NCBI GenBank assembly: GCA_037441705.1
Contig: JBBIRR010000001.1
Span: forward strand, 64,001 to 128,000
Length of the DNA stretch: 64,000 bases
From: Ignavibacteriales bacterium
Lineage (GTDB): Bacteria; Bacteroidota; Ignavibacteria; UBA10030; UBA6906
Direction of reading: 5' to 3'
Below are positions 27,065 to 50,664 of this stretch, one piece after another. A program made the translations under genes and the position numbers. The notes under the pieces are model-generated. The model did no database searches. It was not told the origin of the DNA and saw nothing but the letters and a program-made list of their open reading frames with translations. Position 1 is the first letter of the stretch, and every line of letters begins with the position of its first letter.

Positions 27065-27080
27065 TGCAACCGAAGTGCCA
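27065..27080 (-). promoter_or_regulatory. Sigma54 (-24/-12) promoter of the flgB operon
   Basis: Minus strand TGGCAC-TTCGG-TTGCA, a full consensus match, 43 nt upstream of the flgB ATG. Confidence 0.88.
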
Positions 27081-30847: not shown

Positions 30848-31191
30848 AACTCCATCCCTTTCATGGTCTGCTGCACGGCCCGAACCACACACAGGCGCAA
30901 GAGTTCTTGACTGAAGGGATGTTGAAGATCGCAGTGTCGAAACAGGCTGCGATAGGATGCCTCTGCGTGCGCGAGCAGTTCTTGATCCAACTCCATACAC
31001 TCCTGTGCATTGATCTCTTCTCGATCAACGCCCTGAACATCGGCTTCCGGAACACCCCACTGACGGAGCACCGTCAAGTGTCGCTCCGTCAATTCCAGAC
31101 CGGCTTTGAGCAGGACACGGCGATTGCGGTCGAGAATGTCCGCCGCCAGCACCATGCCGGGCCGCAATTGATCCAAATTGAGTTTTCCCAT
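30844..31191 (-). CDS. 115-aa protein resembling the N-terminal (DUF3391-like) domain of HD-GYP proteins
   Basis: LRPGMVLAADILD...VLLKAGLELTERHLTVLRQWGV; stop/start overlap with the HDOD gene. Confidence 0.7.
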   Translation of the reverse strand: MGKLNLDQLRPGMVLAADILDRNRRVLLKAGLELTERHLTVLRQWGVPEADVQGVDREEINAQECMELDQELLAHAEASYRSLFRHCDLQHPFSQELLRLCVVRAVQQTMKGMEL

Positions 31192-31482: not shown

Positions 31483-31497
31483 GCAAAGCATGTGCCA
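31483..31497 (-). promoter_or_regulatory. Sigma54 (-24/-12) promoter of the accessory signalling operon
   Basis: Minus strand TGGCAC-ATGCT-TTGC, a consensus match, about 50 nt upstream of the 74-aa gene. Confidence 0.82.
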
Positions 31498-32107: not shown

Positions 32108-33571
32108 TTATTGTTGAATGTCCGCCGGGCGATCTGCAACAACGGTGAAGCTCCGCTGCTCAGGGTGAATACCAAGCTGATCCATGCGGTAGCGGAGCTT
32201 CGAGCGTGTGAGGCCGAGAATCCGTGCGGCGTGCACCTGGTTGCCGTTGGTGAGAGCGAGCGTCTGCAAGATGAGATCCCGCACCACATGCGCCATGGTG
32301 ACACCGGTTCGAGGGATCTCAAGGCGGTAGGTATTGCTGCTTGCCTGTCCATTCGTCGCTTTACTGTTACCGGAAGCCAGGAAGGAAAACTGCTCGGCGG
32401 TGAGCAACGGCCCGTTATTGAGAAGGACAACGCGTTCGATTGCATTGCGCAGTTCTCGTACGTTCCCTTTCCAGGGCAAGCTTTGCAGGAGCGTGAGCGC
32501 ATCGTCCGAAAGTTTTGGCACCTGTTTGTTGAACTTCTTGCTGAACTCCTGCAAGAATGCATACGAGATGACGGCAATGTCTTCCTTGCGCTCGCGCAGC
32601 GGGGCGATTCGTACCAATGCAACGTTCAATCGGTAGAAGAGGTCTTCGCGGAATCTCCCCTCTTCGACTTCCTTGGCAAGGTCCCTGTTCGACGCGGCAA
32701 TCACGCGAACGTCGACCGTCAGCTCGCGGGTGCCGCCGAGCCGGTAGAAACGATGATCCTCCAGCACGCGCAGCAGTTTGACCTGCATGTCCAGCGACAG
32801 TTCGCCGATCTCGTCCAGGAAGATGGTGCCGCCGTTTGCCAGTTCGAACTTGCCCTGCCGCATCCGATCCGTCGCGCCGGTGAAGGCTCCTTTCTCATAG
32901 CCGAAGAATTCACTTTCGGCGAGATTCTTCGGGATGGCTCCGCAGTTCAGGGTGATGAACGGCTTGTCGGCGCGAGCACTTTTCTGGTAGATGAAACGCG
33001 CCAGCAGTTCCTTGCCTGTCCCGCTTTCTCCTTCCAACAGAACCGTCGTATCCGTCTGTGCGAGTTTCTCAGCCGTCTCCAGCGTGCGCCGGAGGGCCGG
33101 GCTTCTGCCGATAATCCCGCTGCGCACACGCTGCTCCTCCAATTCGGTTTGCAGGAGCTCGACCTTCCGCTTGAGGCGCGACTGTTCCATCGCCTTTTCA
33201 ATCAACACACTCAAATGCGAAAGATCGAACGGCTTGAGGACGAAATCGATCGCCCCTTCCTTCATGGCCTCAACGGCAAGCGCAACATCAGCGTGGCCCG
33301 TCATCATCAACACGGGTGTGTCGTTCCCCTCTTCCTTCATCTTGCGCAGCAATTGTAGGCCGTTCACCTTCCCCATGAAGATGTCCAGCAGCACCAGGTC
33401 CGGATTCACGTCGGCGAGTGTCGACAGAAACTGCTCACCGGAAAGACACGTGCTGACGGAGTAGCCCGAAGAACCAAGAATGTTCTGCAGGCTTTCGGTC
33501 AGAATTTTTTCGTCATCGACGACGAGGATTCTCCCTCTTGACATAAATGGTTCGTCCCCCCAATGGTTCAT
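32108..33571 (-). CDS. Sigma54-dependent enhancer-binding response regulator (REC-AAA+-HTH; FlgR/FleR/NtrC-like)
   Basis: REC domain with LLDIFM, Walker A GESGTGKE, intact GAFTGA, Walker [37 protein letters not shown]. Confidence 0.95.
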
Positions 33572-36529: not shown

Positions 36530-36880
36530 TCAACGTGAATAGGCAAGAAGCTGTTTTTGGTTGCGTGCCTGCCGCAATTGTTCTGCAACTTCATCCTTTT
36601 TGTGAACGACCAACGTCCTGAGCTGGTGATCGGTATTCTGCAACAGGTCGGTGAGGGGTTTCAACCGAACCAGGTCTCCTCGGATACTATCGGCATTCTG
36701 CCGGAAATCTTTCCACTGCGCCAGCAGAACGGACTGCTGTTCTAACAGTTTTTCGCGGCGGTCCAGAAGTTCGTGCAACGATGAAAGATCGTCGCCCTGG
36801 ACGGTCGAGCAGAGCTGCCGCGTCACCTCGATCAGCGAAAGCAGCGTTGAACGAAGCAGGTCAAACGTCGCCGTGCTCAT
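36530..36880 (-). CDS. fliT: FliT-like helical chaperone
   Basis: 116-aa helical protein with LLDRREKLL and a C-terminal LLAY; lies downstream of fliD/flaG. Confidence 0.6.
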   Translation of the reverse strand: MSTATFDLLRSTLLSLIEVTRQLCSTVQGDDLSSLHELLDRREKLLEQQSVLLAQWKDFRQNADSIRGDLVRLKPLTDLLQNTDHQLRTLVVHKKDEVAEQLRQARNQKQLLAYSR

Positions 36881-37233
36881 GCGTTCCCGTCAATCAAAAG
36901 ACCCAGGAGCTTGCTGAGCCGGGAAGCAATCCGCAGCGCTTCTTCTGCCGGAATCTGGCGGATGACCTCGTGCGTCTTGCTGTTGATAATCTTCAGCACA
37001 ATCTTGTCGGTCTCTTTATCGACCGAGAAGTTCAGCTCCGTGTGCATGGCCAGTAGATTGTCGTTCACCTCTCGCACAATTCTTTCCACTTCTTCTTGCG
37101 AGAGTTTTTTTTGCTGATGGGACTGCTGCACCTGCGCGTCGCCCTGCATCGAGCGGCGTGTCGGCTCCATGAACAGTTTTTCGGGGGAAGACACTTGCAT
37201 CGGTGCAAGTGGTGTTTCAATCGCTAATGACAT
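36877..37233 (-). CDS. flaG: Flagellar protein FlaG
   Basis: LNFSVDKET...EVIRQIPAEEAL...GLLID. Confidence 0.93.
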   Translation of the reverse strand: MSLAIETPLAPMQVSSPEKLFMEPTRRSMQGDAQVQQSHQQKKLSQEEVERIVREVNDNLLAMHTELNFSVDKETDKIVLKIINSKTHEVIRQIPAEEALRIASRLSKLLGLLIDGNA

Positions 37234-37250
37234 TTCCTTGTCCTCCCTGC

Positions 37251-38690
37251 TTAATAACCATAAAGTTGTAATGACAGTCTCGAAATCGCTTGTGATTGTA
37301 ATGAGATTCTGTTGAGCGTATTTTGCAGCGCCTCAAACTGAAGTCTGAAAGCCTCCACCCTTCGGTCGATTTGCGCATTGGTTCTGGTCAGCGCCGTACG
37401 GATGTTGGTGAGCTGATCCTGCGTCCCGTCGCGCACAACATCAATCTGTCCGCCGAACGAGGTGAACGTTTCCAACAAGCTGCTCAGTCGTACCGCCAAT
37501 CCATCCGAGGCATTGAACAGATCCGACACCTTGCGCACGTCGCTGGCGAGTGCATCGTTAAGTTTTGCCGGATCGCTCAGACTCAACTTGCCGTCACTTC
37601 CCGCCTTGATGCCGATCTCCGAGAGCAGCGAGGGATTCCCCGGACTCACACCAGTAACGGCACTGCTCATCAGGGTACGCAGATTGATCTTCAAATCCTT
37701 GAAGAGCTGATCGCTCGCCAGAATCTCTCGTGTCTTGTTCTCCGGATTCACGGACGTCTTTGACTGCAAGAAGCCCAAGGCGTCGTTGTAGGCGGTGATA
37801 AACTGCTCAATCGCCGCCTTCACTTTCTCCTTATCTATTCCGATCGTGAGCGTCACGGGGGTATCGTTTATTCCCTGAACGCCCTTCAGCTCCAGGGTCA
37901 CACCGGTCAGCACGTCGCTCACCGAATTGCTGCCGCGCACGATATCAATCCCATCAAGCTTAAACTTTGCATCAAGTGCATCGGTCGAGGAAACGAGATA
38001 TCCCCCTGTCGTGCTCGTCGAAGCCGTCCTGCCGGCGATGACGTTGTCATCGAGACCGATTGCATCGAGGATATTTCCCGATACATCCTCGAGCACCACA
38101 GCGTTGCTCGAACCGGTTTCCTTGCTGGTGACCACAAGGCGACTGGTGCCGGTGGTATCGGCAACGACCGAGGCAGTTACCTTCGCTCCGGAAGCGGCAT
38201 TGATGGCGGAAGCGAGATTGCTGAGTACCGTGCTGTTGGACTGTCCTGCCTCCACATCAAACGACACGTCCGTCGCTACGCCGTTGACCGTGATGCGGAT
38301 GGTTTTTGTTCCGGGTCCATCTCCGTCGGCAATGCTCGTTGACGCGCTCGACAGACGCGACGAGAGCACCGTGTCATTCTTTGCAAGCTGGGTGACCAGC
38401 AGCGTGTGCGTGCCGGGCGCAGCCGAAGACGTGGCCGTCCCCCCGACAACCGACGGCAGCGAACTTTCCACGGAATACACGCTGAACTTCGACAGCGAGC
38501 CTGTCGCTTTCATCTCCTTTGCAAGCGAGTGAAGCGCCGTCAGCTTTGTCTTGAGATCCGCAAGAACGGACAGCCGCGCGTTCAGCGACGTCCGCCGGCT
38601 CTCCAACGTGCGTACCGGCTTGCTGATGCTGAGCCGATACTGCTGTACGAGAGACTCGATCTGACTTGCTATGTTGGAAATCTCTGCCAT
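37251..38690 (-). CDS. fliD: Filament cap protein FliD
   Basis: VTQLA, RLVVTSKETGSSN, SNSVSDVLTGVTLEL, FITAYN, LSEIGI. Start at ATG 38690. Confidence 0.93.
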   Translation of the reverse strand: MAEISNIASQIESLVQQYRLSISKPVRTLESRRTSLNARLSVLADLKTKLTALHSLAKEMKATGSLSKFSVYSVESSLPSVVGGTATSSAAPGTHTLLVTQLAKNDTVLSSRLSSASTSIADGDGPGTKTIRITVNGVATDVSFDVEAGQSNSTVLSNLASAINAASGAKVTASVVADTTGTSRLVVTSKETGSSNAVVLEDVSGNILDAIGLDDNVIAGRTASTSTTGGYLVSSTDALDAKFKLDGIDIVRGSNSVSDVLTGVTLELKGVQGINDTPVTLTIGIDKEKVKAAIEQFITAYNDALGFLQSKTSVNPENKTREILASDQLFKDLKINLRTLMSSAVTGVSPGNPSLLSEIGIKAGSDGKLSLSDPAKLNDALASDVRKVSDLFNASDGLAVRLSSLLETFTSFGGQIDVVRDGTQDQLTNIRTALTRTNAQIDRRVEAFRLQFEALQNTLNRISLQSQAISRLSLQLYGY

Positions 38691-38709
38691 CGTCGTTGCT
38701 TCTGAACAC

Positions 38710-39069
38710 TTAGAGTTTGAACGCCTCTTTCCATGCCGAGCGGAGTTCCTCAAGGACTTCCGCAGCGTCGTCGTGTTTGCCCTGCCGTAGACAGTATTTT
38801 GAGTACTGATAGAGCCGGTACAGGCTTACGGCGACCTCCTGGTATTCAAAATTCAATGCAGCAATCAGTTCATTCACGGCTCGGTTTGCCAGCGGCACAT
38901 CGTTCTTCTTGATGGCCTGAATGGCAATGCCATAGAGCCTGTGGATGACCTCCACGGGAGACAGATTCAAGAGCTGCTCGTTGCGATAGGTTGCCAGCGC
39001 CGATTGAACGCGTGGACCAACAAACAACCGCTCAGCCGCGGGGACTTGTGCCTGTGTTGCTGCCTGCAT
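38710..39069 (-). CDS. fliS: Flagellin chaperone FliS
   Basis: YRNEQLLNLSPVEVIHRLY, ELIAALNFE, LYRLYQY, ELRSAW. Confidence 0.9.
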   Translation of the reverse strand: MQAATQAQVPAAERLFVGPRVQSALATYRNEQLLNLSPVEVIHRLYGIAIQAIKKNDVPLANRAVNELIAALNFEYQEVAVSLYRLYQYSKYCLRQGKHDDAAEVLEELRSAWKEAFKL

Positions 39070-39112
39070 GAGAGATCAACCTCCGTTCGTCGTCATTGTG
39101 TGAGATAATACG

Positions 39113-39139
39113 GGAGGGCGCCTTACGGGGCGCCGCTCC
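39113..39139 (-). terminator. GC-rich hairpin between fliC and fliS (partial terminator or mRNA stabiliser)
   Basis: GGAG(C)GGCGCC-CCGTAA-GGCGCC-CTCC on the minus strand, with a weak U-tract. Confidence 0.55.
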
Positions 39140-39170
39140 TGTTGTTCGTCAGGCCACTGTGTCGTCGAGA

Positions 39171-39995
39171 TTATCGAAACAGTGACAGGAACACCTGCGG
39201 CGATGCATTCGCCTGCGCCAGCATCGACGTGGCCGTTTGCTGGAGGATCTGCAGCTTCGCAGCCTTGATCTGCTCCTTGGCAATGTCGGCATCGAAGATG
39301 CGGCTCTTTGCTGCCTCCGTGTTCGTGATGGCGGTGTTGAGGTTCGCCTCCTTCGCGGACAGGCGGTTCAACGAGGCGCCGATATCGCCGATGGCAGTGT
39401 TCACCGTCGCCAAGCCCGTATCCACCGTCAATGTGGAGACGTTGGCCGAGGTGATGCTGCCCGCTGTAACGCCAAGCAGTGCCGCCGAGGAAACACTCGC
39501 GCTGAACGACACGGTGTACACCTCTGTGCTTGCCTCACCAACCTGGAAGTTTTCCGAGTAGGTACCGCTGAGCAGTTGCACACCGTTGAACTTCGCCGAG
39601 GCGACGATGTCGTCGATTTCCGCAGCAAGGGCGCTGATCTCGGTCGCGATGGCTGTCTTCTCATCGGCACCGAAGGCACCGTTGATGAAGCGCGTCTGCT
39701 TCTCCTTCACCTGCACCAGAAGATCGGCAATCTTCTGATACGCGCCTTCAGCAACACCGTAGGTGGACTGGGCATCGCCGACGGTGTCCAGAGCAGAGTT
39801 CATCGCGCGAATGCGTCCCTCCATTTTCTTGGAGATGACGTATCCCGACGGATCATCTGCAGCCGTGTTGATGCGCCGACCCGTTGCCAGACGCTCCTGA
39901 TGCATGCTGAGATCACGGTTGATTGCGTTCAACGCATTCAACGCGTTCATCGCAGCAACGTTCGTGTTGATACGAGCACCACCGGTTAATGGCAT
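39171..39995 (-). CDS. fliC: Flagellin, minimal type (274 aa)
   Basis: RINTNVAA, RLATGRRINTAADDPSG, FQVG, IGASLNRL, SRIFDADIAKE, QILQQ...MLAQAN. Confidence 0.97.
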   Translation of the reverse strand: MPLTGGARINTNVAAMNALNALNAINRDLSMHQERLATGRRINTAADDPSGYVISKKMEGRIRAMNSALDTVGDAQSTYGVAEGAYQKIADLLVQVKEKQTRFINGAFGADEKTAIATEISALAAEIDDIVASAKFNGVQLLSGTYSENFQVGEASTEVYTVSFSASVSSAALLGVTAGSITSANVSTLTVDTGLATVNTAIGDIGASLNRLSAKEANLNTAITNTEAAKSRIFDADIAKEQIKAAKLQILQQTATSMLAQANASPQVFLSLFR

Positions 39996-40082: not shown

Positions 40083-40109
40083 TTATCGGAGATGCGCGGA
40101 ATTTCTTTA
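40083..40109 (-). promoter_or_regulatory. Sigma28 promoter of the fliC operon
   Basis: TAAA-N15-TCCGATAA against consensus TAAA-N15-GCCGATAA. Confidence 0.88.
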
Positions 40110-40213: not shown

Positions 40214-41782
40214 TCAGGTTTCTGGCGCGGCCGACGCGGAGAGTTTTTCTGCGAGCGCGGAAAGACGATTGCGCACCGGCGTGAGGTCGACGTCACTCGT
40301 CTGGGCCATCAATTCCAGATGGCCAAACGCTGCATGCACATCGCCTTTGGCGAGGGTGAACTGAAGGGCGGCCTTGTGAAGTTCGAACGCCCTGATGCGT
40401 TTTTCCTCAGCCGCATTGATCAGGCGCTCAGCCTCCTCCATCTCGCCGGCCTCGGTACGCCAGCGAATTGCAAGTGCGTACAGCTCGCCATTCGTCGGCT
40501 CTGCATCAATTGCCTTGTCGAGGTAGCGTAATGCCGTTCTCCGGTCACCACTGGTGTAGTGCCGTACAGCAAGCGGAAGAAAAAACTCGTGTCGGTGCGG
40601 AGCTGCTCTTGCCGCTGCTTCAAGCTGTTCCATGCACACACGCGGCTGAGCAATCTTCTTTTCACAGCGAAGAAGTCCGTGAAGCACATCCTCCGCATCG
40701 GGATTCCGCTGCAGCATCCGAACGTAGACTTCGAGGGCTTCGGTCCACTTCGACGCCGCTTCGTACGTGAAGGCCAACCGCCTGTCAACTTCAGCAGCGG
40801 TCAGCTCGAGATCGGAAGAAATCTGGGACGAGCGCTCTGTGCGCGGCGTGCGAAGGAGGGGATAGATCTGTTTGAGAACACCGATTGCCTTCTCATACTC
40901 GCACAGATCATAATACAGCAGCGCGAGAAACCAGCGCGCCATGATTTGCAACGGGGCGAGATCGAGAGACCTCAAGCAAAGCGTCACTGCCTCCCGCAGG
41001 TTGCCCGATCGGACGGCAACCTCGGCGAGAAGATTATAGCACGACGCCTGAACACTCCTATCCAGCTTCGGATGTACAACGGCCTGTCCAAGAACAGCCT
41101 TCGCCTCGTCGTATCGCTGAAGCACGACGAGGCTGTTGCCCATCTGAAAGCGTGCATATGCATCATCAGGATCATCGGCAACCTGCTTTTCCAAGAGTTC
41201 CAGATTGCGCCTTGCCTTCTCCTTCACAACATCGTAGCCGCGGTTGTAGCCCACGTGGAATATGGTGAGAGGCGATGACTGAATCTTAAGCTTGAGTCGT
41301 TTCAGGGAGGGCCAGATCTGTTCATGCACACGCCCTTCAAACTGAACTCCGGGCAGTTTTCGGAACAGCCTGGGGTAAGCATTCTGTTGGTGGAACGTCC
41401 CGTGCTGCATTGTCTGAGGATTCTGGATCGTCACCGCGTAGGCATCCGCCTTTGCGCGGGAGATCAACTCAGGCAGAAGGCGCATGGACTCGGGTGTCAG
41501 TCGCTCATCGGCATCAATGTAGAGAATCCAATCACCCGAACATTGCTGCAGCGAGAAATTCCTTGCCGCGGCAAAGTCGTCACGCCATGGGTACTCAAAC
41601 ACTCGCGCCCCCAAGCTCAACGCAATGTTCTTTGTCGAGTCCGTCGAACCCGTATCCACGACAATAATTTCATCGGCGATCGGCCGAACGCTCTCCAGGC
41701 ATTCTTTGAGGAAGCATTCCTCGTTCCTCACGATCATGCTTACTGAAAGCGTCGGCCGCGTCTGGTCGTCTTTTGAGGACAT
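40214..41782 (-). CDS. GT2 glycosyltransferase with TPR repeats, probable flagellin-initiating glycosyltransferase
   Basis: SVSMIVRNEE, VVDTGSTD, WRDDFAAARNFSL, YIDADE, FEGRVHEQ, HVGY, RNLELL, then TPRs; adjacent to fliC. Start at ATG 41782. Confidence 0.88.
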   Translation of the reverse strand: MSSKDDQTRPTLSVSMIVRNEECFLKECLESVRPIADEIIVVDTGSTDSTKNIALSLGARVFEYPWRDDFAAARNFSLQQCSGDWILYIDADERLTPESMRLLPELISRAKADAYAVTIQNPQTMQHGTFHQQNAYPRLFRKLPGVQFEGRVHEQIWPSLKRLKLKIQSSPLTIFHVGYNRGYDVVKEKARRNLELLEKQVADDPDDAYARFQMGNSLVVLQRYDEAKAVLGQAVVHPKLDRSVQASCYNLLAEVAVRSGNLREAVTLCLRSLDLAPLQIMARWFLALLYYDLCEYEKAIGVLKQIYPLLRTPRTERSSQISSDLELTAAEVDRRLAFTYEAASKWTEALEVYVRMLQRNPDAEDVLHGLLRCEKKIAQPRVCMEQLEAAARAAPHRHEFFLPLAVRHYTSGDRRTALRYLDKAIDAEPTNGELYALAIRWRTEAGEMEEAERLINAAEEKRIRAFELHKAALQFTLAKGDVHAAFGHLELMAQTSDVDLTPVRNRLSALAEKLSASAAPET

Positions 41783-41786
41783 AGTC

Positions 41787-44700
41787 TTATGTTGGGTTAT
41801 TCTCAGCAACAAGCACGGCTTCATCCGAACCGCAAGCGCCATCCGGATCGAGGAGTGAGTTGTGATCCTCCGCCATGCCGAGTTCGGTGTTCACGCGCGC
41901 GAGAGCCTCCCGGGCAGCGATGTTTGCCGGCTCGTTCACCACCGCATGCTCGAGCATTGTTTTGGCCGGCATCAGCATGCCCGCGTGGAGGAACACTTCA
42001 CCCAAACCCACACACGCACGCGCCGAATGAGGCGTCACCGTCAGTTCTTCCTCGAAATACTTCTTTGCTTTCTCCAACAATCCCAACGCCATTGCCACAT
42101 GCCCTGTCAGATTGAGCAAGTCGGGGTACTCCACCGCACACGACGCGCGTTCCGAGGCATGGAAGACCGCGAGAGCCTTCTCGAGCGTTTCCAGCGCAAG
42201 CGCCATCTCCTGTTCCTCGATGAGGATCTGTGCTCGCTCCCAGTACTGAACAAATGCATCGCGATGGAGAGGAACTGTCAACGACCGTTTCCGCACGTTC
42301 CTCTCTCCCCGATGGGTCCACAGGGTGTCCGGGTCAACGCCCCATTTTTCCAGAAAGACAAGCCGGTTGGTCTGCAAGCGGGCATGATACTTCTCTTTCC
42401 CTCCAGCAAGAAAACTCCTGGAGCCGTAATGATGGATGAATACGTCATTCGCCACAACGGTCTTAAAGCCCGCAAGTGCAGCTCGCAGACAGAAGTCATC
42501 GTCCTCGTAGTTCCCGGGCGTGAAACGCTCGTCCAGCCCACCGATAGCATCAATCACCTTTCGCAGGATGAGCGTGCAGAGGAACGCAACTCTCGGAAAG
42601 ACGCGACGCTCGCCCTTCCTTTCCTCGCGCACCCTCCGTGCATACGCATACATCTGCTCGATCGTTTGATACACCGCCTGCTCATCTCGCTGCACACCGC
42701 TGGCATAGTTACTCACCGTGCCAACGATCCCGACCTCCGGATCGGCATCCGCCACTTCCAGCAGTCGTTCGAGCCAGCCTTCGGTGACGATCGTGTCGTT
42801 GTTCAAAAGCACGATATGTTCCCCCACGGCTGCGTTGATGCCCTGATTCACACCGGCAGGAAAACCGACGTTCTCTCTGTTGCTCACGATCCGCACCTCG
42901 GGAAACTCCTGCTCGATCTTCTTCACCGTGCCATCCGTGGAGGCATTGTCCACCACGATCGTTTCATGCGGCGTGTGGGTGAACCTGCTGATGCTTTCGA
43001 GGCACTGGTGCGTGTATGTGTATTGATTATGGGCAAGCACAATGATGCTCACCTTCGGTGGCAACGCACATTGCAGCGCACGCGAGGAGAGGAAGGCCCG
43101 ACGTGTCTCAAAGCTCGTGAGATGCTCGATGCGTCGGCCCATCAGAGCGCTGGAATACTGTGCCGCGACAAGCTTCTGTCCCGCGACGGCAAATTCCTTC
43201 CACAGCCCCTCGTTCGTGTACAGCTCGACTGCATACCGCGCAAACTCTTCCGGCGTGTCAGCAATGAATGCGTGTACCCCGTGCACGATGTTCATTCCTT
43301 CCGCCCCGATCGACGTTGAAACCATCGGCACTCCGTGCGCCATCGCTTCGCCGACTTTCCCCTTGTTTCCCGCGCCGTACCGCAGCGGAATCACCGCCAC
43401 ACGGCATCGTTCGAGATAGGGACGCGTCTCGGGCACCCATCCGGTGACGGTCACATGCGACGAGGCAAGACTTTTTACTTTCGGCGTCGGATTGTTCCCG
43501 ACGATCCAGAAGTGTGCATCCGGCAGCTTCTTCCGTATCAACGGAAAGATCTGTCGAACAAAGAAAACAACGGCATCTTCATTTGGGTCGTGATTGAAAT
43601 TGCCGATAAAGAAAAAGTCCTTTCTGCGTTCGAAAGGTGTGGCTGACGGCTGTGGGTCATGCACATCGGTCATGATAAAGATGGGCTTGTCGGGGAGTTC
43701 CTTCTGCAAAACGGCTCTATCCGCCTCCGTCACCGTCGTCACGGCATCTGCACTTGCGTAGACGGCAAGTTCTTGCTTCTTGATCTTCTGCGCCGCCTCC
43801 TTTAGTCTGTGATCGTTGAGCATCTCTGCCCGACGGGCTTCCCGCAGGAAATGAACATCCATAGAGTCCACGATGATGGGAACGTTCGGATCGGCTGCAC
43901 GAATCAACTTCATGAAGTAACGCGCGATATGCCAGAAACAGATGTACACCAAATCCACCTTACGCAGCGGCAATTCAAGGCTGGCGATCAGACGCTCAAG
44001 GATAGGCTGAACATGATCTGTCTCGCGAAACTCCCACCACGCTTCGTATTCGAACCAAATCAATTCCACTCCTGAACTTCGCAACTCCGTCATGTGCTTC
44101 ACTGCCGCTTCATCCGTAAGCCGTCCCGTCAGGTGGACATACGTAACGTGATAGCCAAGCGCCAGCATCTGCTTGACGGTATGGTACAGGCGCAAACTTC
44201 CGGCCGCGCGATCGGGAAGCGGTGGGAGGTCATCAATGATGAGAATGCGCTTGCCGCGATGACGATGCGAAAACTGATAGCGCAAGCGTTCGTCGCAGGG
44301 ATACTGAAGCGCAAGTTCTTTCTTCCACTTCTGTTTGAACTTCGGCGCGTTCAACGCCTGAAACTTCTTGAATCCCGCGGAAAGATTTGTGCCCGCTGTT
44401 ATGCCTTCATGATGGATGACTTTGGACATCGGGCAGTACAGCACCTTGTACCCGAGCTTCCGCACCGCGAAGCACAGATCGGTATCCTCATAGTATGCCG
44501 GAGCGAAACGCGTGTCGAAACCGCCGAGCCGTCTGAACAGGTCGGCTTTGATGGTCAGCGCCGCACCCGAGCAATAGTCCACCTCTCGCACAAACTGGAA
44601 GCGAGAGCTGTTCGGGGGATGTCCCCGACCGTAGTTCCAGCCTGTCGCGTCATTGAAGATGACCCCGCCGGCTTCTTGCAGCACGCCATTCGGATAGATC

Positions 44701-45497
44701 AGCATCGAGCCGACGATGCCTGCACACGCGTTGCGCGCAAAACAGTTGTACACCTCGGTCAACCAGCCCGGTTGTACTTCCGTATCGTTATTGAGAAACA
44801 CGATCAGCTCCCCTTCGGCGCTTTGCGCGGCAAGATTGTTGCCTCCAACAAACCCCAGATTCGAAGGAGAATGAATGAATTTGATGCGGGATCCGTATGC
44901 CTCTAGCATGCCGGGCGTAAAGTCCGTCGAGGCATTGTCCACAACAATCAGCTCGTAGTTGGGGTAGTCCGTGTTTCTCAACACCGCCTCGATGCAGCGC
45001 AGTGTGTACTCCGCTTTGTTGTAGCAGAGGACGAGAATCGAGATAAGGGGAACAGTCTGGCGCCGCAGCGGTTGGCGTTCCGGTTTCCGCGCGAACATCG
45101 CAGCAAGGGTGTCTTCTTCCCACGGCATGTCGCGCAGGATGTTGCTCACGCGAGCTGCCACGTGGACAAACGGTGCAGTGGTCTCATACACCTCAGCATA
45201 GAGCTTCAGCGCCGTGTTTCTGTCGCCGCACTCTTCGGCAATACGTGCGAGATAGAGTTTCGAGTACGGATTATCCGGATCCATCGAGAGGCTTTCGATG
45301 AAGAAGCGTCGTGCCTCGTCATACTCCTGCGCATAGAAGCAGGTTCGCGCCAGTAGATGTCGCAGATAGGCTCTCGCAGAAGAGGGAAGATCGGGCCCTT
45401 CGCTGGACTGCATGAGGAACGTTCTGGCGCGCTGTTCGTCGTTCGCATCGAACATCTCCTGCACTTCCTGGAGCAGGTCTTCGAGTCGTTGCATCAT
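41787..45497 (-). CDS. Multidomain glycosyltransferase TPR-GT2-GT4-GT2-TPR (about 1236 aa)
   Basis: Two GT2 domains (VVDNASTD...LNNDT...EDxD), a GT4-like domain (FIGNFNHDPN, PLRYGAGNKGKVGEAM) and terminal TPRs. Start at 45497 or 45518. Confidence 0.88.
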   Translation of the reverse strand: MMQRLEDLLQEVQEMFDANDEQRARTFLMQSSEGPDLPSSARAYLRHLLARTCFYAQEYDEARRFFIESLSMDPDNPYSKLYLARIAEECGDRNTALKLYAEVYETTAPFVHVAARVSNILRDMPWEEDTLAAMFARKPERQPLRRQTVPLISILVLCYNKAEYTLRCIEAVLRNTDYPNYELIVVDNASTDFTPGMLEAYGSRIKFIHSPSNLGFVGGNNLAAQSAEGELIVFLNNDTEVQPGWLTEVYNCFARNACAGIVGSMLIYPNGVLQEAGGVIFNDATGWNYGRGHPPNSSRFQFVREVDYCSGAALTIKADLFRRLGGFDTRFAPAYYEDTDLCFAVRKLGYKVLYCPMSKVIHHEGITAGTNLSAGFKKFQALNAPKFKQKWKKELALQYPCDERLRYQFSHRHRGKRILIIDDLPPLPDRAAGSLRLYHTVKQMLALGYHVTYVHLTGRLTDEAAVKHMTELRSSGVELIWFEYEAWWEFRETDHVQPILERLIASLELPLRKVDLVYICFWHIARYFMKLIRAADPNVPIIVDSMDVHFLREARRAEMLNDHRLKEAAQKIKKQELAVYASADAVTTVTEADRAVLQKELPDKPIFIMTDVHDPQPSATPFERRKDFFFIGNFNHDPNEDAVVFFVRQIFPLIRKKLPDAHFWIVGNNPTPKVKSLASSHVTVTGWVPETRPYLERCRVAVIPLRYGAGNKGKVGEAMAHGVPMVSTSIGAEGMNIVHGVHAFIADTPEEFARYAVELYTNEGLWKEFAVAGQKLVAAQYSSALMGRRIEHLTSFETRRAFLSSRALQCALPPKVSIIVLAHNQYTYTHQCLESISRFTHTPHETIVVDNASTDGTVKKIEQEFPEVRIVSNRENVGFPAGVNQGINAAVGEHIVLLNNDTIVTEGWLERLLEVADADPEVGIVGTVSNYASGVQRDEQAVYQTIEQMYAYARRVREERKGERRVFPRVAFLCTLILRKVIDAIGGLDERFTPGNYEDDDFCLRAALAGFKTVVANDVFIHHYGSRSFLAGGKEKYHARLQTNRLVFLEKWGVDPDTLWTHRGERNVRKRSLTVPLHRDAFVQYWERAQILIEEQEMALALETLEKALAVFHASERASCAVEYPDLLNLTGHVAMALGLLEKAKKYFEEELTVTPHSARACVGLGEVFLHAGMLMPAKTMLEHAVVNEPANIAAREALARVNTELGMAEDHNSLLDPDGACGSDEAVLVAENNPT

Positions 45498-45514
45498 CCA
45501 CCTCTTCTCGGCGA

Positions 45515-48500
45515 TCATGAAGTCACAAGCGACGGGGTTTCCACCCGGCGTGTATCCGGGGCACCCCACACAAATTCTTTTCGTCCGATCTCTCGCGATC
45601 GTAACTGGATAACCTCCTCCGGTGTTTGGAACAGGTAGCGGAGGTGACGGACTGCTCCCTTCGTGCGCAGTTTCATCAGACACTGCACCGGAGCGAGCTT
45701 CTTCTCCTTCAGAAGCGCCAGATCGAGGTCAAGGATACGCATGATGAGGTCTCTGTCCTGCGGGTCATCGGGATTGAAGTTGTGCCCATATCCTCGATCC
45801 GTGAACCGATTGATGATGGTAGCGAAGGGAAGGAACATCTCGCAGTCGAACCGTTGGATCAGGAGTGGCAGAATATCCTGCGCGCGGATGCCTTCAAAAC
45901 CCTCGCTGCTGCAATCATGATTCATCGGCTCATCATCATAAGTCTTCCAGTACGCGTTGTATTTGTACTTCCTGTCGAGCGTATCCCAGATCGTTCGCAC
46001 AACGGAGGAGGTGGCGGGCCACATCACGTGGCCGTTCCGCCCGATCATATCATTCACAAGAAAGATAAACTGCTCGGACGCTGCAGCATCAATGGCGGCA
46101 AATAGCTTCTCTAATGCAACGATATGGTGAAGTGAATGGCTGGCAAGCACAACATCGAATTGCCCGCTCAGGTTCACGTTGTTCAGGTCCTGCACCGAGA
46201 AGACCGCATACGGGAAGCCCCGTTGGGCGGCCAGAGCGTTGGCTCGTTCAATCATCGTGGGATTCAGATCGAGACCGAGAAGCTGCACGCGTTCGGGTTC
46301 GCACACCCGGGCAAGCACATCCAGCTCAACATCTCCGTTGCCGCACCCGATCGAGAGGACACGGACGTTGCCGGCGCGGCTCTTCAGCATCTCCGAAATC
46401 TCTCTTGCCCACCAATCCCTGATATCCGACTCCCCGGTCAATTCCTTCAGCCATTGGGAGAGCGAAGCCTCGTTCACGACGTGATTGATTGGCGGAAGAT
46501 CATGGACGTTGATCTCTCCGGCATAGCGGGCTATTTCTGCCCCGAGCTTTCTCCGGTACTCACCTTCGCCTGTATCATTGGGGTTGTGCGCATCTCGTCG
46601 GGTAAGCGTAAGCACGGGGTGATACCGGCGGTCGCTCGATGTCGGCCGGAGCAATTCGTTCAGCTCAGACTCTGCGGTTACCGGTGTGAAGCCTTTCGCT
46701 TGCAACGCCTCAACCAACTCGCGCGCGGTTTCGTTCGAGGGATCTACGGCAAGCACACGATTAAAAAAGTAGAAAGCATCTCCGTACCAATCGAGACTCA
46801 CGCAAATGGAGCCAAGTGACAGAAGCGCCTCCGCGTCATCGCTGGACCGGCTGAGGACATAGCGGAGATGCGGAATTGCATCCTCGGGGCGACCGGTGTG
46901 GACATACAGGTCTGCAAGATTCTTCCGGGCATCCAGGAAGTCCCTGTCCAGGCGGACGGCGCGTTCAAAGTTCTGCAACGCAAGTTTGAGATTTCCCCGA
47001 TGGAACGCCCGCACGCCAAGCTCATTATGGATTTCCGGCAACGACGGATCGTATTGCATCGCGAGATCGAAGGCGAAGTCTGCCTCCGCTGTTCTGCCCA
47101 AAGCCTGCAAAAGCCTGAAATAGCGGAACTGCAGCTTGGCCTGTTCGGGGAAGCACGTGAAACTTCGGCGGAGGCGCTGCAGCGCTGCTGTTGTATCATC
47201 CCGCTCCAGCACCGCGTCGATCTCGGCAAGGAGATGTGCAATGACTGGCTTCTCGGCCGCGTGTTTCGGGCTCAACCCTGCGCGCCCGGCCAGTTGATCA
47301 TACTGCTGCTTGAGCTGTTTGTACTGATTTTTCCAATAGGCCATTTCGAGTCCGGCGTTGAGCTGCGTGTTTGCCTGATCGCCCGAATGCTGCCGATACT
47401 CCAGGAGAAACTCCGCACAATGAACAGCACTCCATCCGGCATTGACCATCCGAACAAACAAATGATGATCCTCGGGTCCCGCGGAATCCTTATACCCTCC
47501 GACCTGTTCAAAAGCTTTTCGCCGGTACATCGAAGACCCGTGGATGAAATTGTTCTGCGCCAAGGAACGCCTGGTCTCCTCGGTAAAATCCACAAAGCGC
47601 CAGAGGAAGACATCCGCCGTTCCAGCCGCAGGTGTTGCGCCGACCTTTTGTGCAAGCACTTCTGCACGCGGGCCGAAGAGGGCAACATCCGTATAAGCAA
47701 TCGCCGCTTCAGGATGAGTATCGAGGGCGAGTTTGCACTTCTCGACGTAGTCGCTTCGCAGGCGATTGTCGGCGCCGAGGAAGCAAATGTATTCGCCGTT
47801 CGTCAGACTGACCGCTTTGTTGAAGTTGGCAACGATACCCAGATTTCTCTCGTTGCGCACGATACGAATCCTGTCTTTGTATCGCTCGGCAATCTCCATC
47901 GAGTTATCGACCGAGCAGTCATCAATGAAGAGGATTTCATCGGGGAGAACAGTTTGGTGCAGCGCACTTTCGATTGCTTCGGCGGCGAAGCGGCCGTAGT
48001 TGTAGTTGGCAATGATGAGTGAAACGGATGAAGAAGGGAAGCGGGTCTCACTCGTCACTTCGAGACGATTGAGCTGGTACCTGTCGCTGTTGTTTCCTCC
48101 AACGCACGACAATGCCCCGCGGAAGCGCCGCTTCACCTCGTCAACAACGGTGGGATTGTGTTTGCCGTAGGGATAGGCAAACCACCCAAAGCCTTGGGGG
48201 TCGAGCTTACGGACGTCCTCGGGCACGGTCAGTTCGTAAGCCAATGCGGCAGCATCGAGTGTTGTGCAGTCCGGATGTGTCACTGTGTGCCATTGGAGGC
48301 GCCCGCCTGCTCTTACACACTTTGCGAGCTGCTCGCGGGTCGCAAAGCGAGCCGGGGGTTCTTCAGCCTGATCAAATTCGTTCGACCGGCCTATCACCGC
48401 GCTGGTAATGAATAGCTCAAACGGGTAGCCGAACTTTCGCAGGATTGGAAGGGCAAATTGATATACATTCTCGTACACACCATCGAATGTAATGCATGCG

Positions 48501-48643
48501 TGTTTCGGGTCGTCGGGATTGTATTCATCGAGAGAGACGACCTTGTAGCGTCTCAGCTCTTCCATTTGCCGCCAGAAGGCATCAACACTCACCCACCACT
48601 TGGTCGGTGTTTCAGGGTGGACTTTGTGATACATGAGAATCAT
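45515..48643 (-). CDS. Fusion: polysaccharide deacetylase (CE4/NodB-like)-GT2-TPR-SAM methyltransferase
   Basis: ILMYHKV, ITFDG, WHTVTHP, FAYPYG; GT2 (IIANYN, IDDCSVD, FLGAD, ED); TPRs; methyltransferase VLSIGCGNG...FDVV...LHH. Confidence 0.85.
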   Translation of the reverse strand: MILMYHKVHPETPTKWWVSVDAFWRQMEELRRYKVVSLDEYNPDDPKHACITFDGVYENVYQFALPILRKFGYPFELFITSAVIGRSNEFDQAEEPPARFATREQLAKCVRAGGRLQWHTVTHPDCTTLDAAALAYELTVPEDVRKLDPQGFGWFAYPYGKHNPTVVDEVKRRFRGALSCVGGNNSDRYQLNRLEVTSETRFPSSSVSLIIANYNYGRFAAEAIESALHQTVLPDEILFIDDCSVDNSMEIAERYKDRIRIVRNERNLGIVANFNKAVSLTNGEYICFLGADNRLRSDYVEKCKLALDTHPEAAIAYTDVALFGPRAEVLAQKVGATPAAGTADVFLWRFVDFTEETRRSLAQNNFIHGSSMYRRKAFEQVGGYKDSAGPEDHHLFVRMVNAGWSAVHCAEFLLEYRQHSGDQANTQLNAGLEMAYWKNQYKQLKQQYDQLAGRAGLSPKHAAEKPVIAHLLAEIDAVLERDDTTAALQRLRRSFTCFPEQAKLQFRYFRLLQALGRTAEADFAFDLAMQYDPSLPEIHNELGVRAFHRGNLKLALQNFERAVRLDRDFLDARKNLADLYVHTGRPEDAIPHLRYVLSRSSDDAEALLSLGSICVSLDWYGDAFYFFNRVLAVDPSNETARELVEALQAKGFTPVTAESELNELLRPTSSDRRYHPVLTLTRRDAHNPNDTGEGEYRRKLGAEIARYAGEINVHDLPPINHVVNEASLSQWLKELTGESDIRDWWAREISEMLKSRAGNVRVLSIGCGNGDVELDVLARVCEPERVQLLGLDLNPTMIERANALAAQRGFPYAVFSVQDLNNVNLSGQFDVVLASHSLHHIVALEKLFAAIDAAASEQFIFLVNDMIGRNGHVMWPATSSVVRTIWDTLDRKYKYNAYWKTYDDEPMNHDCSSEGFEGIRAQDILPLLIQRFDCEMFLPFATIINRFTDRGYGHNFNPDDPQDRDLIMRILDLDLALLKEKKLAPVQCLMKLRTKGAVRHLRYLFQTPEEVIQLRSREIGRKEFVWGAPDTRRVETPSLVTS

Positions 48644-49176
48644 TTCTGGTACACCTCAAGGATGTGGGTATACTCTCGATACGAGTAGTACTCCCGATGC
48701 AACGTGACGTACGGGAACCGCAGCGCGTACCACTCATGAATGTGAACGCTGACCAGGATGCCGCCCGGAACCAGAACCCGATCAACGATTTCATACACGA
48801 GCTTCTTGCTCTGCGCGAGATACTGAGGATAGAATACCCCTGTGGCAACAACGAGGTCGAAGGCGTTCTCCCATTCCAGCTCAGGAATGTCGAAGAGAGA
48901 ATGCTGTTCGTACGTGATCTGCGGCGGCGCATTCTGCCTCGCCCATCGAATGGCATTGGCTGACACGTCAATGCCCATCACGCGTTTGCCCGGGAGGCGT
49001 TTGGTGATGAAACCGTCGCCGCACCCGATATCCAGCACGCTTTCGTATTCCCGCTTCGGCAGCGCCCCAAGAAGCATCGCACGGCGGTTGAGGTCGTCGG
49101 GATTGGTCTCGTAGTGCCACGGATCAGGCCTCTCGTACCATTGTTCCAGCTCGTCGATCGGTTGAAGAACGTTCAT
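48640..49176 (-). CDS. NodS-like class I SAM-dependent methyltransferase
   Basis: N-terminal YERPDPWHYE..DD..R...L..LP resembles NodS. SAM motif VLDIGCGDG, GIDVS, FDLVV. ATGA overlap with the deacetylase fusion. Confidence 0.78.
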   Translation of the reverse strand: MNVLQPIDELEQWYERPDPWHYETNPDDLNRRAMLLGALPKREYESVLDIGCGDGFITKRLPGKRVMGIDVSANAIRWARQNAPPQITYEQHSLFDIPELEWENAFDLVVATGVFYPQYLAQSKKLVYEIVDRVLVPGGILVSVHIHEWYALRFPYVTLHREYYSYREYTHILEVYQK

Positions 49177-49461
49177 TGTATGCGTCGATAGTGGATTCGT
49201 TTGCGCGTAAGAACTCTTTCCGCATCGTACAACCTGCATGCCGCGAAACCTCGGCGATTTGGAAAACATTATCGGCCTGACCCCTCTTCGTGGTGCACAA
49301 TATTGCGCAAGTGTCTTCCTTTATCTTTTTCTTTGCATCTCCTCCCCCATCTTCCTATTTTTCGATCAACAATAGGGGCCGTTGTGGAGGCACAACTACC
49401 GGCCTGATCCCATGGAATTCCACACATCCATGCAACCAGACGGCCCGTTCGCAAATCATCC

Positions 49462-50664
49462 ATGCTTGCAGCAACACAGCGACACGTACAGAACGAACTC
49501 CTGTCGGACGAACGCATAGCCGGTATTCGGGCTTTGTTCCCACACACGGCTCAGCGCAAGGTCTACCTCAACCACGCAGGCACGGCACCGATGTGTACCC
49601 GCGTGGTGGAGGCGATCACGGCACACCTCCGGGAACGCTCGGCAGGCATGATCGAGACCTACATGGCGCAGGACGTTGCGAAGTTCGAGGAATGCAGAAA
49701 ACTCGTGCAGGAGCTGATCAATGCCGAATCGCCCGACCGCATCGCGCTGATGATGAACACGTCGGATGCAATCAATGCCGTAGCGTCGGGGCTATCGTGG
49801 AAGAGCGGCGACCGCATCCTGCTGCATGAGGCGGAGTTCCCGGCCAATGTGTGGCCCTATCTCGGACTCAAACGTCATGGGGTCGAGATCGATATCATTC
49901 CGCAGAGCAAGGGACACCCGACACCTGAGCTGATCGCCGATGCCGTCACGACGCGAACGAGATTGATTGCGTTGAGCGCGGTGCAGTTTCTCACGGGCTA
50001 TCGTGCCGATCTCGAAATGATCGGATCGTTCTGCCGCCGCAACGGGATCATTTTCGTCGTGGATGGAATTCAAGCGGTTGGTGCTCTGCGGCTGGATGTG
50101 CAACGAATGAAGATCGACGCTCTCGCTTCCGGCTGTCAGAAGTGGCAGTTGGGTCCGCAGGGAACCGGCTGGCTCTACCTGACGGAGGAATTGCAGCAAC
50201 GCATCCATCCTGCCTTCGTGGGTTGGCTCGCCGTGGAAGACCCGTGGGATTTCTTCAACTACGATCAACGACTTTCCACAACTGCGCGTATGTTTGAAGG
50301 GGGAACGAAGAACATCCCCGGCTTGTACGGCATGGCGGCCGCGCTGAAGGTGCTTCTCGACGTTGGCCTTGAAAGCATCGAGGCGCGCATCCTGACTCTC
50401 ACACAACTCCTGATCGAGGAATTTCAGGAAATCACCGGACTGACGCTTCTGACGCCACCCCATGCGCATGAACGCGCAGGCATCGTCACCGTTGAGCTGC
50501 AGCCGGGAGTGAACGCAAAGGAAGTCTACAAGTTCTTGCTCGGACAGAACGTTACCGTGGCTTTGCGTGAGGGGAGATTGCGCTACGCTCCACACTTCTA
50601 TAATACGCAGGATGAAATTGCTCTCGCGATCGAGCGCACACGCGAAGCACTTGCACTATACTAG
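49462..50664 (+). CDS. PLP-dependent aminotransferase class V enzyme (cysteine-desulfurase-like fold)
   Basis: YLNHAGTAP, VVDGIQAVG, GCQKWQLGP (PLP lysine), FEGGT, RYAPHFYN. No SufS/IscS catalytic Cys loop seen. Confidence 0.85.
   Translation: MLAATQRHVQNELLSDERIAGIRALFPHTAQRKVYLNHAGTAPMCTRVVEAITAHLRERSAGMIETYMAQDVAKFEECRKLVQELINAESPDRIALMMNTSDAINAVASGLSWKSGDRILLHEAEFPANVWPYLGLKRHGVEIDIIPQSKGHPTPELIADAVTTRTRLIALSAVQFLTGYRADLEMIGSFCRRNGIIFVVDGIQAVGALRLDVQRMKIDALASGCQKWQLGPQGTGWLYLTEELQQRIHPAFVGWLAVEDPWDFFNYDQRLSTTARMFEGGTKNIPGLYGMAAALKVLLDVGLESIEARILTLTQLLIEEFQEITGLTLLTPPHAHERAGIVTVELQPGVNAKEVYKFLLGQNVTVALREGRLRYAPHFYNTQDEIALAIERTREALALY

Follow-up and report, generated by a model that had tools for sequence, protein, structure and literature searches.

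What a set of long, multidomain glycosyltransferases is doing directly in front of a flagellin gene is the question raised by four genes, referred to here as G1 to G4, that lie at positions 40214-49176 of a 64,000-nucleotide stretch of an Ignavibacteriales genome (contig JBBIRR010000001.1, positions 64,001 to 128,000 of the forward strand; hereafter the window). Our findings indicate that the likeliest role of these genes is to assemble and trim a glycan attached to flagellin, and that their enzymes have most likely been borrowed from a widespread, unstudied cell-surface polysaccharide module. More specifically we favor, though with slightly less than even confidence, the view that the block is a cytoplasmic flagellin O-glycosylation line descended from the machinery of ABC-transporter-dependent (Wzm/Wzt-type) polysaccharides. 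The evidence comes from the domain content of the block, the likeness of two of its enzymes to GmaR and NodS, a conserved gene pair whose products are predicted to bind one another, and the split of that pair between exporter-linked and flagellar surroundings.

The window consists of one long minus-strand flagellar regulon, in which Pfam matches place rod, hook, export-apparatus and C-ring genes together with fliA, flhF and flhG at 730-27144, two-component and sigma-54 regulators at 27-36 kb, and then flaG, fliD, fliS and fliC at 36877-39995. The block stands immediately upstream of fliC-fliS-fliD-flaG, with fliC beginning 218 nucleotides past the block end, and its four minus-strand genes are translationally coupled, as judged from the open reading frame (ORF) listing and from reads of the junctions. 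G1 (48640-49176) encodes a small class I S-adenosylmethionine (SAM) methyltransferase of 178 residues that belongs to a compact NodS-like family. Its stop shares an ATGA overlap with the ATG of G2 (45515-48643), whose 1042 residues comprise a carbohydrate esterase family 4 (CE4) domain, a family 2 glycosyltransferase (GT2) domain, tetratricopeptide repeats (TPRs) and a further methyltransferase. The same kind of overlap joins the G2 stop to the ATG of G3 (41787-45518; 1243 residues arranged as TPR-GT2-GT4-type-GT2-TPR), for which a longer alternative GTG start at 45683 is unlikely, and G4 (40214-41782; 522 residues, GT2 then TPR) starts 4 nucleotides past the G3 stop. Because G1 and G2 each have database proteins that are 98-99% identical as well as many homologues, the block genes are real and not chance ORFs. 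In total, Pfam finds four GT2 domains, one GT4-like domain, one CE4 domain, two SAM methyltransferases, and TPRs in all three glycosyltransferases. The initial annotation of this DNA had described four packed genes directly upstream of fliC, this same set of domains and a lack of export and lipid-carrier genes, and in these respects it was accurate: among the window ORFs scanned with Pfam there is no flippase, polymerase, ABC exporter or polyprenyl-phosphate transferase, and no ligase or initiating transferase either.

Much of the interpretation turns on the first two domains of G2. Residues 1-200 (48044-48643, minus strand) form a CE4-type deacetylase domain, which matches Polysacc_deac_1 (PF01522) over residues 43-171 with 52.3 bits against a cut-off of 23.1, and residues 201-440 (47324-48043, minus strand) form the GT2 domain fused to it (PF00535, 98.1 bits, Pfam span 208-381). 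A TPR array follows at residues ~475-650 (46694-47221, minus strand), with matches to Pfam TPR families and, at residues 480-647, to TPR and O-GlcNAc transferase (OGT) structures in the Protein Data Bank (PDB). The second SAM methyltransferase and a C-terminal extension occupy residues ~690-1042 (45515-46576, minus strand; Methyltransf_25/31 at residues 745-866); its PDB matches are generic methyltransferases only, and stand-alone homologues of it occur in two of the Wzm/Wzt loci surveyed below (L042, L066). When the AlphaFold2 (AF2) model of the CE4 domain (predicted local distance difference test score, pLDDT, 95.9) was compared with solved structures using Foldseek, the best fold matches were PplD at the top (query TM-score, TMq, 0.81), IcaB (0.75) and PgaB (0.73-0.78), with BC0361/BA0330 also among the closest and the CE4 pseudoenzyme BA3943 at rank 17, and the domain thus belongs to the PplD/IcaB/PgaB subgroup. 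It aligns with 6dq3 (PplD) and 4wcj (IcaB) through the ILMYH, TFD, HxxxH and AYP(S/Y)G stretches. In alignments of 22 and of 25 homologues, H6, D54, H119 and H123 are invariant: H119 and H123 make up an HxxxH motif that aligns with HTVNH of 6dq3 and corresponds to the His-His metal ligands, and D54 is the first Asp of motif 1 (TFDD), which we take to be the CE4 catalytic base. Y5-H6 is also kept, in line with ILMYH of 6dq3 and VLCYH of 4wcj, and its His is presumably the catalytic acid of the permuted PgaB-type subgroup; E76, D91, E95, R115 and Q117 are further polar residues that are invariant across phyla. Motif 1 of G2 nevertheless reads TFDG, with an invariant G55 in the 22 and the 25 sequences where 6dq3 and 4wcj have the second Asp of TFDD. 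Because this metal-binding Asp is replaced by Gly in every aligned homologue, the CE4 domain may be inactive or may use other chemistry. PplD, IcaB and PgaB, all of them GlcNAc de-N-acetylases with TFDD, are moreover extracytoplasmic enzymes, whereas the CE4 domain of the block is cytoplasmic and fused to a GT2 domain.

The partner of this module, G1, reaches the NodS family of Pfam (PF05401, 31.9 bits against a cut-off of 24), which is also carried by most members of the G1 family but is outscored by generic methyltransferase models (Methyltransf_31, 62.5 bits). Its best PDB sequence match by phmmer is NodS 3ofj (E 1.9e-9, residues 8-144), and its AF2 model (pLDDT 95.5) finds NodS 3ofk as the first-ranked Foldseek match (TMq 0.83, root-mean-square deviation 2.7, 24% identity), followed by phosphatidylethanolamine N-methyltransferase (TMq 0.71). 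The top NCBIfam match is likewise the NodS equivalog NF041650, but with 47 bits against a cut-off of 300, so that G1 is not a NodS equivalog, even though NodS comes first among solved structures by sequence and by fold alike. By analogy with these relatives it is plausible that G1 methylates nitrogen rather than oxygen. The family is compact, with 28 representative clusters at E<=1e-30, 184 at <=1e-10 and 3851 at <=1e-3, the last figure taking in generic methyltransferases, and a word-based search with G1 returned this compact family alone and no true NodS. Four of the seven fused representatives that were scanned carry a G1-like methyltransferase joined to a GT2 without any CE4 domain, and methylation is therefore not always dependent on a deacetylase. 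In these proteins (P0224, P0226, P0233 and P0215) the G1-like domain is fused directly to the GT2, and P0224 has a GT4 domain as well.

The initial annotation had likened the two enzymes to NodS and NodB of the rhizobia, in which NodB de-N-acetylates the non-reducing N-acetylglucosamine (GlcNAc) of the Nod factor and NodS then N-methylates it. What survives of this comparison is a CE4 fold beside a NodS-like methyltransferase and a GT2; what does not is equivalence, given that G1 is shorter and below the equivalog cut-off and that the CE4 domain sits in another subgroup with TFDG at its first motif. The window ORFs scanned with Pfam include no nod genes (nodA/nodB/nodC) and offer no chitooligosaccharide context. 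The proposed order, deacetylation before methylation, is weakened by the fusions without CE4 and cannot be obligatory, even if de-N-acetylation followed by N-methylation is still plausible from the sequence relationships.

The association of G1 with the CE4-GT2 module (G2 residues 1-440) is a conserved two-gene cassette across many phyla. We surveyed loci from one genome per species, calling genes from six-frame ORFs within at most 10 kb of flank and searching them with the window proteins; 98 loci were confirmed and 80 of the 98 examined. Of these 80 loci, 71 encode a full-length homologue of G1 (E 1e-33 to 1e-105), which in 69 cases immediately precedes the CE4-GT2 gene on the same strand, usually with an overlap between its stop and the start of that gene. 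Six of the nine loci without G1 end at a contig edge within 195 nucleotides of the match (L004, L031, L035, L040, L071, L076), and in L077, L078 and L080 the match is divergent or partial. The CE4-GT2 module is 45-65% identical to proteins of many phyla, where it is fused to varied further domains; carriers include Chloroflexota, Cyanobacteriota and Patescibacteria, and, among cultured organisms, Pedobacter heparinus, Flavobacterium flavipigmentatum, Xylophilus ampelinus and Aureimonas glaciei. A model of the complex of G1 with G2(1-440), each given as an alignment, scored 0.89 (0.89, 0.90 and 0.88 in separate runs), with 0.00 for the best control, contact agreement of at least 87% between runs and partner pLDDT of at least 89; among solved complexes 116 of 157 attained that mark, and among mismatched pairs 2 of 215. 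In the predicted interface, the near-invariant RFPY region of G1 (151-161) and its residues 120-133 face residues 10-25 and 62-70 of the CE4 domain and 198-231, 294-298, 321-347 and 412-415 of the GT2 domain. The model supports, though it does not show, binding of G1 to the module. Given that 69 of the 71 G1-bearing loci have the two genes side by side and that the complex scores as it does, a functional coupling of G1 with the CE4-GT2 gene is supported.

The module's further fusions vary widely. In 7 of 25 long homologues a crude test finds a coiled-coil-like stretch past the N-terminal CE4-GT2; one of these proteins (P0089/L023) has a WbdD-like layout of CE4-GT2 and coiled coil with no further glycosyltransferase, and in some homologues the stretch precedes polymerase-type glycosyltransferase domains. 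With 7 of 25 long proteins showing it and 41 of 79 CE4-GT2 proteins standing alone, a WbbB-like coiled-coil layout is ruled out as a general feature. In G2 itself, judged on the close relative in L001, the longest stretch free of Pro and Gly past the GT2 is ~40 residues and is followed by the TPRs, so there is no coiled-coil ruler. Two other fusions were also seen. A cyanobacterial protein of 1362 residues (P0097) joins CE4-GT2 to the catalytic domain of GT41, the O-GlcNAc-transferase family (98.8 bits). In a Syntrophales metagenome-assembled genome (MAG; L039, 10001-13678, also P0013), a CE4-GT2-TPR protein ends in a radical SAM/SPASM domain in place of the methyltransferase, and G1 in this locus is closely preceded by another radical SAM gene.

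The cassette occurs in two distinct genomic contexts. In 71 loci no TPR follows the CE4-GT2 module; Wzm or Wzt is found in 45 of these (41 of 54 when only those with 5 kb or more of upstream sequence are counted) and flagellar markers in none. In the nine loci where TPRs do follow, Wzm/Wzt is absent from all and flagellar or chemotaxis markers are present in five. The link to export is close, with wzt directly before G1 in 30 TPR-less loci, and nine of ten such loci that were scanned with Pfam have an ABC-2 permease, a Wzt (ABC_tran plus Wzt_C) or both immediately upstream. These nine (Xylophilus, Aureimonas, Wocania, Pedobacter, Flavobacterium, Algoriphagus, a Nitrospiraceae MAG, Pseudoxanthomonas and Fontibacillus) span Proteobacteria, Bacteroidota, Nitrospirota and Firmicutes, the exception being Nostoc (L068), which has no exporter upstream. 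Sugar pathways and glycosyltransferases around the cassette vary, and include rhamnose, heptose-like and nonulosonate genes. Among the TPR-bearing loci, L001 is collinear with the window. L002, from a Thermodesulfobacteriota MAG, runs from flgG to flgL through fliW, flgM, a nucleotidyltransferase and G1 to a 1727-residue fusion of G2- and G3-type domains, and continues with a GT2-TPR gene and then fliC, flaG, fliD and fliS. The cassette follows flgK, flgL, fliW and csrA in L045 (Fidelibacterota), adjoins FlaF in L038 and has CheX and CheD nearby in L039; the four TPR loci that remain are too short or truncated by contig ends. A quick maximum-likelihood search on 68 CE4-GT2 modules, which left out nine partial or split rows and four rows without one of the two domains, gave a tree in which nine of the ten TPR rows, including the window, fall into one 12-row set (Shimodaira-Hasegawa-like approximate likelihood ratio test, SH-aLRT, 98); the remaining three rows of this set are Nitrospirota without TPRs, and one TPR row (L033) lies elsewhere. 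The TPR-bearing clade is spread over Bacteroidota-labelled MAGs, Thermodesulfobacteriota and Fidelibacterota. The cassette is thus not flagellin-specific, and only its TPR-bearing subclade is flagellar. The pairing that the initial annotation had placed in a flagellin system is not special to flagellin, as most homologous cassettes lie in Wzm/Wzt loci without fliC. The initial annotation had also staked its TPR-type flagellin glycan line on homologous blocks not lying mainly in such polysaccharide loci: for the cassette as a whole that is exactly where they lie, but for the TPR-bearing clade that includes the window it is not.

G4 resembles a known flagellin glycosyltransferase. Its glycosyltransferase domain (GT2 at residues 1-205, minus strand, followed by TPRs at residues ~210-500) matches GmaR (PDB 22ao) with E 8.4e-36 and 127 bits, residues 4-203 aligning with residues 3-201 of 22ao; SunS, a peptide glycosyltransferase, is the next PDB match after GmaR, and the top NCBIfam match is SunS-family, below its cut-off. 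The sequence thus points to G4 as a close relative of Listeria GmaR, with the same order of glycosyltransferase and TPRs in a flagellar locus, and to a putative role as a flagellin-priming O-N-acetylhexosamine (HexNAc) transferase. Residues 205-522 match generic TPR proteins only, with no GmaR linker or anti-repressor domain at E<=0.01, and a GmaR-type anti-repressor (MogR-binding) function for G4 was set aside because the C-terminal part matches nothing but generic TPRs. G4-type domains occur in 6 of the 80 loci (L001, L002, L038, L039, L045, and a weak 61-bit match in the TPR-less L061), and five of these six are the flagellar-type loci. G3 is less informative about its substrate: its PDB matches are generic GT2 enzymes only, with a weak NodC match in NCBIfam (42.5 bits against a cut-off of 550), and its GT4-type domain is Glyco_trans_1_4 in Pfam. 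The G3-type GT2-GT4 pair recurs both in Wzm/Wzt loci (L008, L042, L053) and in flagellar loci (L002, L038). Two of these Wzm/Wzt loci (L008 14309-17323 and L042 18455-20394) contain GHMP-kinase and nucleotidyltransferase genes, L008 having a SIS-domain gene as well, and the set resembles a heptose-type nucleotide-sugar pathway; L002 has its nucleotidyltransferase directly before G1. These genes may hint at the sugar used by G3.

The most economical reading of these data is that a Wzm/Wzt-type assembly line would have lost its exporter and gained TPR arrays, a GmaR-like enzyme replacing lipid-linked initiation. In agreement with such an origin, the G3-like GT2-GT4 gene and the gene for a G2-like methyltransferase both occur in one Wzm/Wzt locus (L042). 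In the first step of the proposed mechanism, G4 would place a HexNAc, probably GlcNAc, on Ser or Thr residues in the exposed, Ser/Thr-rich central part of flagellin. The fliC product (39171-39995, minus strand; Flagellin_N plus Flagellin_C in Pfam) is a short flagellin of 274 residues, with 17 Ser/Thr in the 50 central residues 146-195. G3 would then lengthen the chain, and G1 with the CE4-GT2 module would act as a complex of three activities in which a HexNAc is added, its N-acetyl group removed and the product methylated, most likely as a cap at the non-reducing end. The methyltransferase fused to the C-terminus of G2 would add a further methyl group. Where the polysaccharide versions rely on a coiled coil or a membrane setting, the block would use its TPR arrays, which would keep the enzymes bound to flagellin, and an exporter would not be needed because flagellin leaves via the flagellar type III system. 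For the position of the cap we note the placement of the cassette directly after wzt, the coiled coil that follows CE4-GT2 in 7 of the 25 long homologues and the precedent of NodB/NodS, which points to the non-reducing end. From homology and context we infer the acceptor, the identities of the sugars, the order of action, the activity of the CE4 domain, N- as against O-methylation and the position of the cap.

Several observations weigh against this interpretation. The score of G1 against the NodS equivalog falls far below the cut-off, the glycine at the metal site of CE4 is without exception, and G1-like methyltransferases also occur joined to a GT2 without CE4; in addition, the Fontibacillus locus (L072) has no CE4 match at all. 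The stand-alone CE4-GT2 proteins have no long coiled coil, and the carbohydrate-binding domains of adjacent Wzt proteins are not conserved: over 30 loci their median identity is 0.19, as compared with 0.51 for the ATPase domain. These figures speak against a common cap that Wzt would recognize, and they weaken the cap reading without overturning it. The block contains no sugar-nucleotide synthesis genes, flagellin lies within 10 kb in only 2 of the 80 loci, and every TPR-type locus comes from a MAG, the closest records being labelled 'uncultured Chitinophagales bacterium', which is unexpected for a flagellated organism.

The variability of the Wzt binding domains also speaks for a different site of action. 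In the same flagellin line, the G1/CE4-GT2 complex could work at the reducing end, where a carrier-linked GlcNAc primer (undecaprenyl-diphosphate-GlcNAc in polysaccharide loci, Ser/Thr-O-GlcNAc on flagellin) would be de-N-acetylated and methylated and the second sugar added, a possibility that we regard as unlikely. A constant substrate would explain why the module (45-65% identical across phyla) is better conserved than the neighboring Wzt ATPase domain (median 0.51), while the surrounding glycosyltransferases and sugar pathways differ. The nearest solved CE4 enzyme also points this way, since PplD presumably de-N-acetylates the linkage-unit GlcNAc of streptococcal rhamnopolysaccharides, and two links lead to protein O-GlcNAc-type transferases, namely the GmaR-like G4 and the GT41 fusion in P0097. 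Set against these points, we know of no glycan with N-methyl-glucosamine at its reducing end, and an alpha-linked lipid-diphosphate-GlcNAc and a peptide-linked GlcNAc are different acceptors. Furthermore, the coiled-coil layout seen in some of the long homologues, P0089/L023 included, fits terminators and not adaptors, as terminators are described in PMC11231755.

The glycine at the metal site raises a second alternative, in which the CE4 domain is an inactive scaffold that docks G1 onto the GT2, and G1 O-methylates the sugar that the GT2 has added, giving a methyl cap without Nod-like N-methylation. The pseudoenzyme BA3943 among the structural neighbors, the methyltransferase-GT2 fusions without CE4, the missing CE4 in L072 and a predicted interface that uses CE4 (residues 10-25 and 62-70) and GT2 alike are all consistent with a scaffold, and methyl and methyl-phosphate caps made by methyltransferases are established terminators according to PMC11231755 and PMC7820976. 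We nonetheless consider it quite unlikely: the invariance of H6, D54, H119 and H123, together with E76, D91, E95, R115 and Q117, across phyla exceeds what a scaffold needs, and the two best fold matches of G1 are amine-acting N-methyltransferases. The polysaccharide setting of most homologous cassettes could also mean that the block modifies a surface polysaccharide or some other protein, its vicinity to fliC being coincidental, or regulatory as with the GmaR anti-repressor; GmaR is indeed a transcriptional anti-repressor as well, as stated in PMC9638930. This is highly improbable in our view, given that no exporter or flippase, and no initiating transferase or ligase, turned up in the scans of the window, that every enzyme carries TPRs, that the C-terminal part of G4 is generic TPR with no anti-repressor domain at the threshold used, and that other phyla have a like arrangement amid flagellar genes (L002, L045 and, beside FlaF, L038). 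A flagellin O-glycosylation line that caps its chain thus remains the reading we prefer.

Set beside known systems, this proposed line shares parts with several. GmaR of Listeria monocytogenes, which transfers GlcNAc to flagellin and has its TPRs after the glycosyltransferase (PMC9638930), resembles G4 in a full-length alignment of the glycosyltransferase domains and as a gene of the flagellar regulon; Listeria, however, adds a single GlcNAc, whereas three more multidomain enzymes are present here and G4 has no match to the GmaR linker or anti-repressor. By description, the loci of Clostridioides difficile are also alike, a HexNAc-primed flagellin glycan being extended and methylated by neighboring genes: type A is GlcNAc plus phospho-N-methyl-threonine and type B a HexNAc-linked methylated oligosaccharide. 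They differ in that the abstracts of PMC4441256 and PMC5207245 mention no CE4 or NodS-like partner, and the methyl group of type A is on an amino acid and not on a sugar amine. FlmG of Caulobacter crescentus, again compared by description, glycosylates flagellin in the cytoplasm, and because flagellins bind to its TPR domain in two-hybrid assays (PMC7591256) it is a precedent for TPRs as the flagellin-recognition part, but it combines its TPRs with a GT-B domain that transfers pseudaminic acid. On the polysaccharide side, the O-antigen terminators WbbB, WbdD/WbdA and Klebsiella pneumoniae O7 ORF6 are comparable to the cassette homologues directly after wzm-wzt, and the WbbB/WbdD layout, described as of coiled-coil type in PMC11231755, resembles that of the CE4-GT2-coiled-coil homologues; the window differs in having no Wzm/Wzt and TPRs instead of a coiled coil. 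The word 'deacetylase' has 0 occurrences in PMC11231755 and PMC7820976, which points to known terminators without a CE4 domain.

The block is new in some respects and familiar in others. Flagellin glycosylation islands built on GT2-TPR enzymes are already known, and with a genuine GmaR relative in G4 the block as a whole is a variation on them. What is new is the strongly conserved pairing of the gene for the NodS-like methyltransferase with that for CE4-GT2; binding of the two products is supported by the model, and no description of such a pairing was found in the open-access full-text literature on flagellin glycosylation or O-antigen termination. If the cassette is in truth a chain terminator or an editor of the linkage unit, it would add new chemistry to a well-studied pathway. 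The window further suggests how a lipid-linked polysaccharide line can become a protein glycosylation line, through the loss of its exporter, the gain of TPRs and the addition of a GmaR-like enzyme as its first step. A bolder proposal, which we hold to be doubtful, is that G1 and the CE4-GT2 protein are an unrecognized three-enzyme complex that performs Nod-factor-like chemistry across phyla and makes a new cap in ABC-transporter-dependent polysaccharides, that the TPR clade has been re-aimed at flagellin, and that the filament would thus be decorated with an O-antigen-like chain whose terminal residue is a cationic N-methyl-hexosamine.

Regulatory signals around the block are sparse. A sigma-28-type promoter-like site, TAAA-N16-CCGATAA, lies upstream of fliC at 40083-40109 (minus strand) as an exact pattern match, where 0.26 chance matches are expected at no more than one mismatch; the strict pattern with GCCGATA has zero matches. 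About 90 nucleotides upstream of the G1 start, the octamer GCCGATAA (49269-49276, minus strand) resembles a sigma-28 -10 element and is suggestive only, as the sequence read shows no TAAA -35 at the usual spacing. Scans for sigma-70 promoters and terminators gave counts near the shuffled expectation. The sigma-54 pattern at no more than two mismatches is at chance level (74 matches, 73.9 expected), and therefore only two exact sites stand out, the perfect TGGCAC-N5-TTGC consensus sites inside the regulon at 27066-27080 and 31483-31497 (both minus strand); the gene for an NtrC-type sigma-54 activator (32108-33571, minus strand; Sigma54_activat, 237 bits) lies nearby.

The remaining features of the window can be described briefly. 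Downstream of fliC, Pfam identifies fliS (38710-39069), fliD (37251-38753, start uncertain) and flaG (36877-37233), all on the minus strand. Immediately past flaG, an ORF of 116 residues (36530-36880, minus strand) matches no Pfam or NCBIfam family, is without homologues in the 80 loci, and may be an unrecognized flagellar chaperone or regulator. On the other side of the block, a class V aminotransferase or cysteine-desulfurase-like gene (49462-50664, plus strand) is divergent from G1, and the same divergent placement is seen in the two closest loci (L001 7988-9214 and L041 8011-9204); an Aminotran_5 gene (L068 15024-16214) also lies ~3.5 kb away from the isolated Nostoc cassette. Two HDOD-domain proteins are encoded within the regulon (3528-4403 and 30005-31000, both minus strand), and an HDOD gene adjoins the L038 cassette. 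Finally, tandem signal peptidase I (S26) paralogues (60915-61808 and 61811-62734, both minus strand) adjoin lepA.

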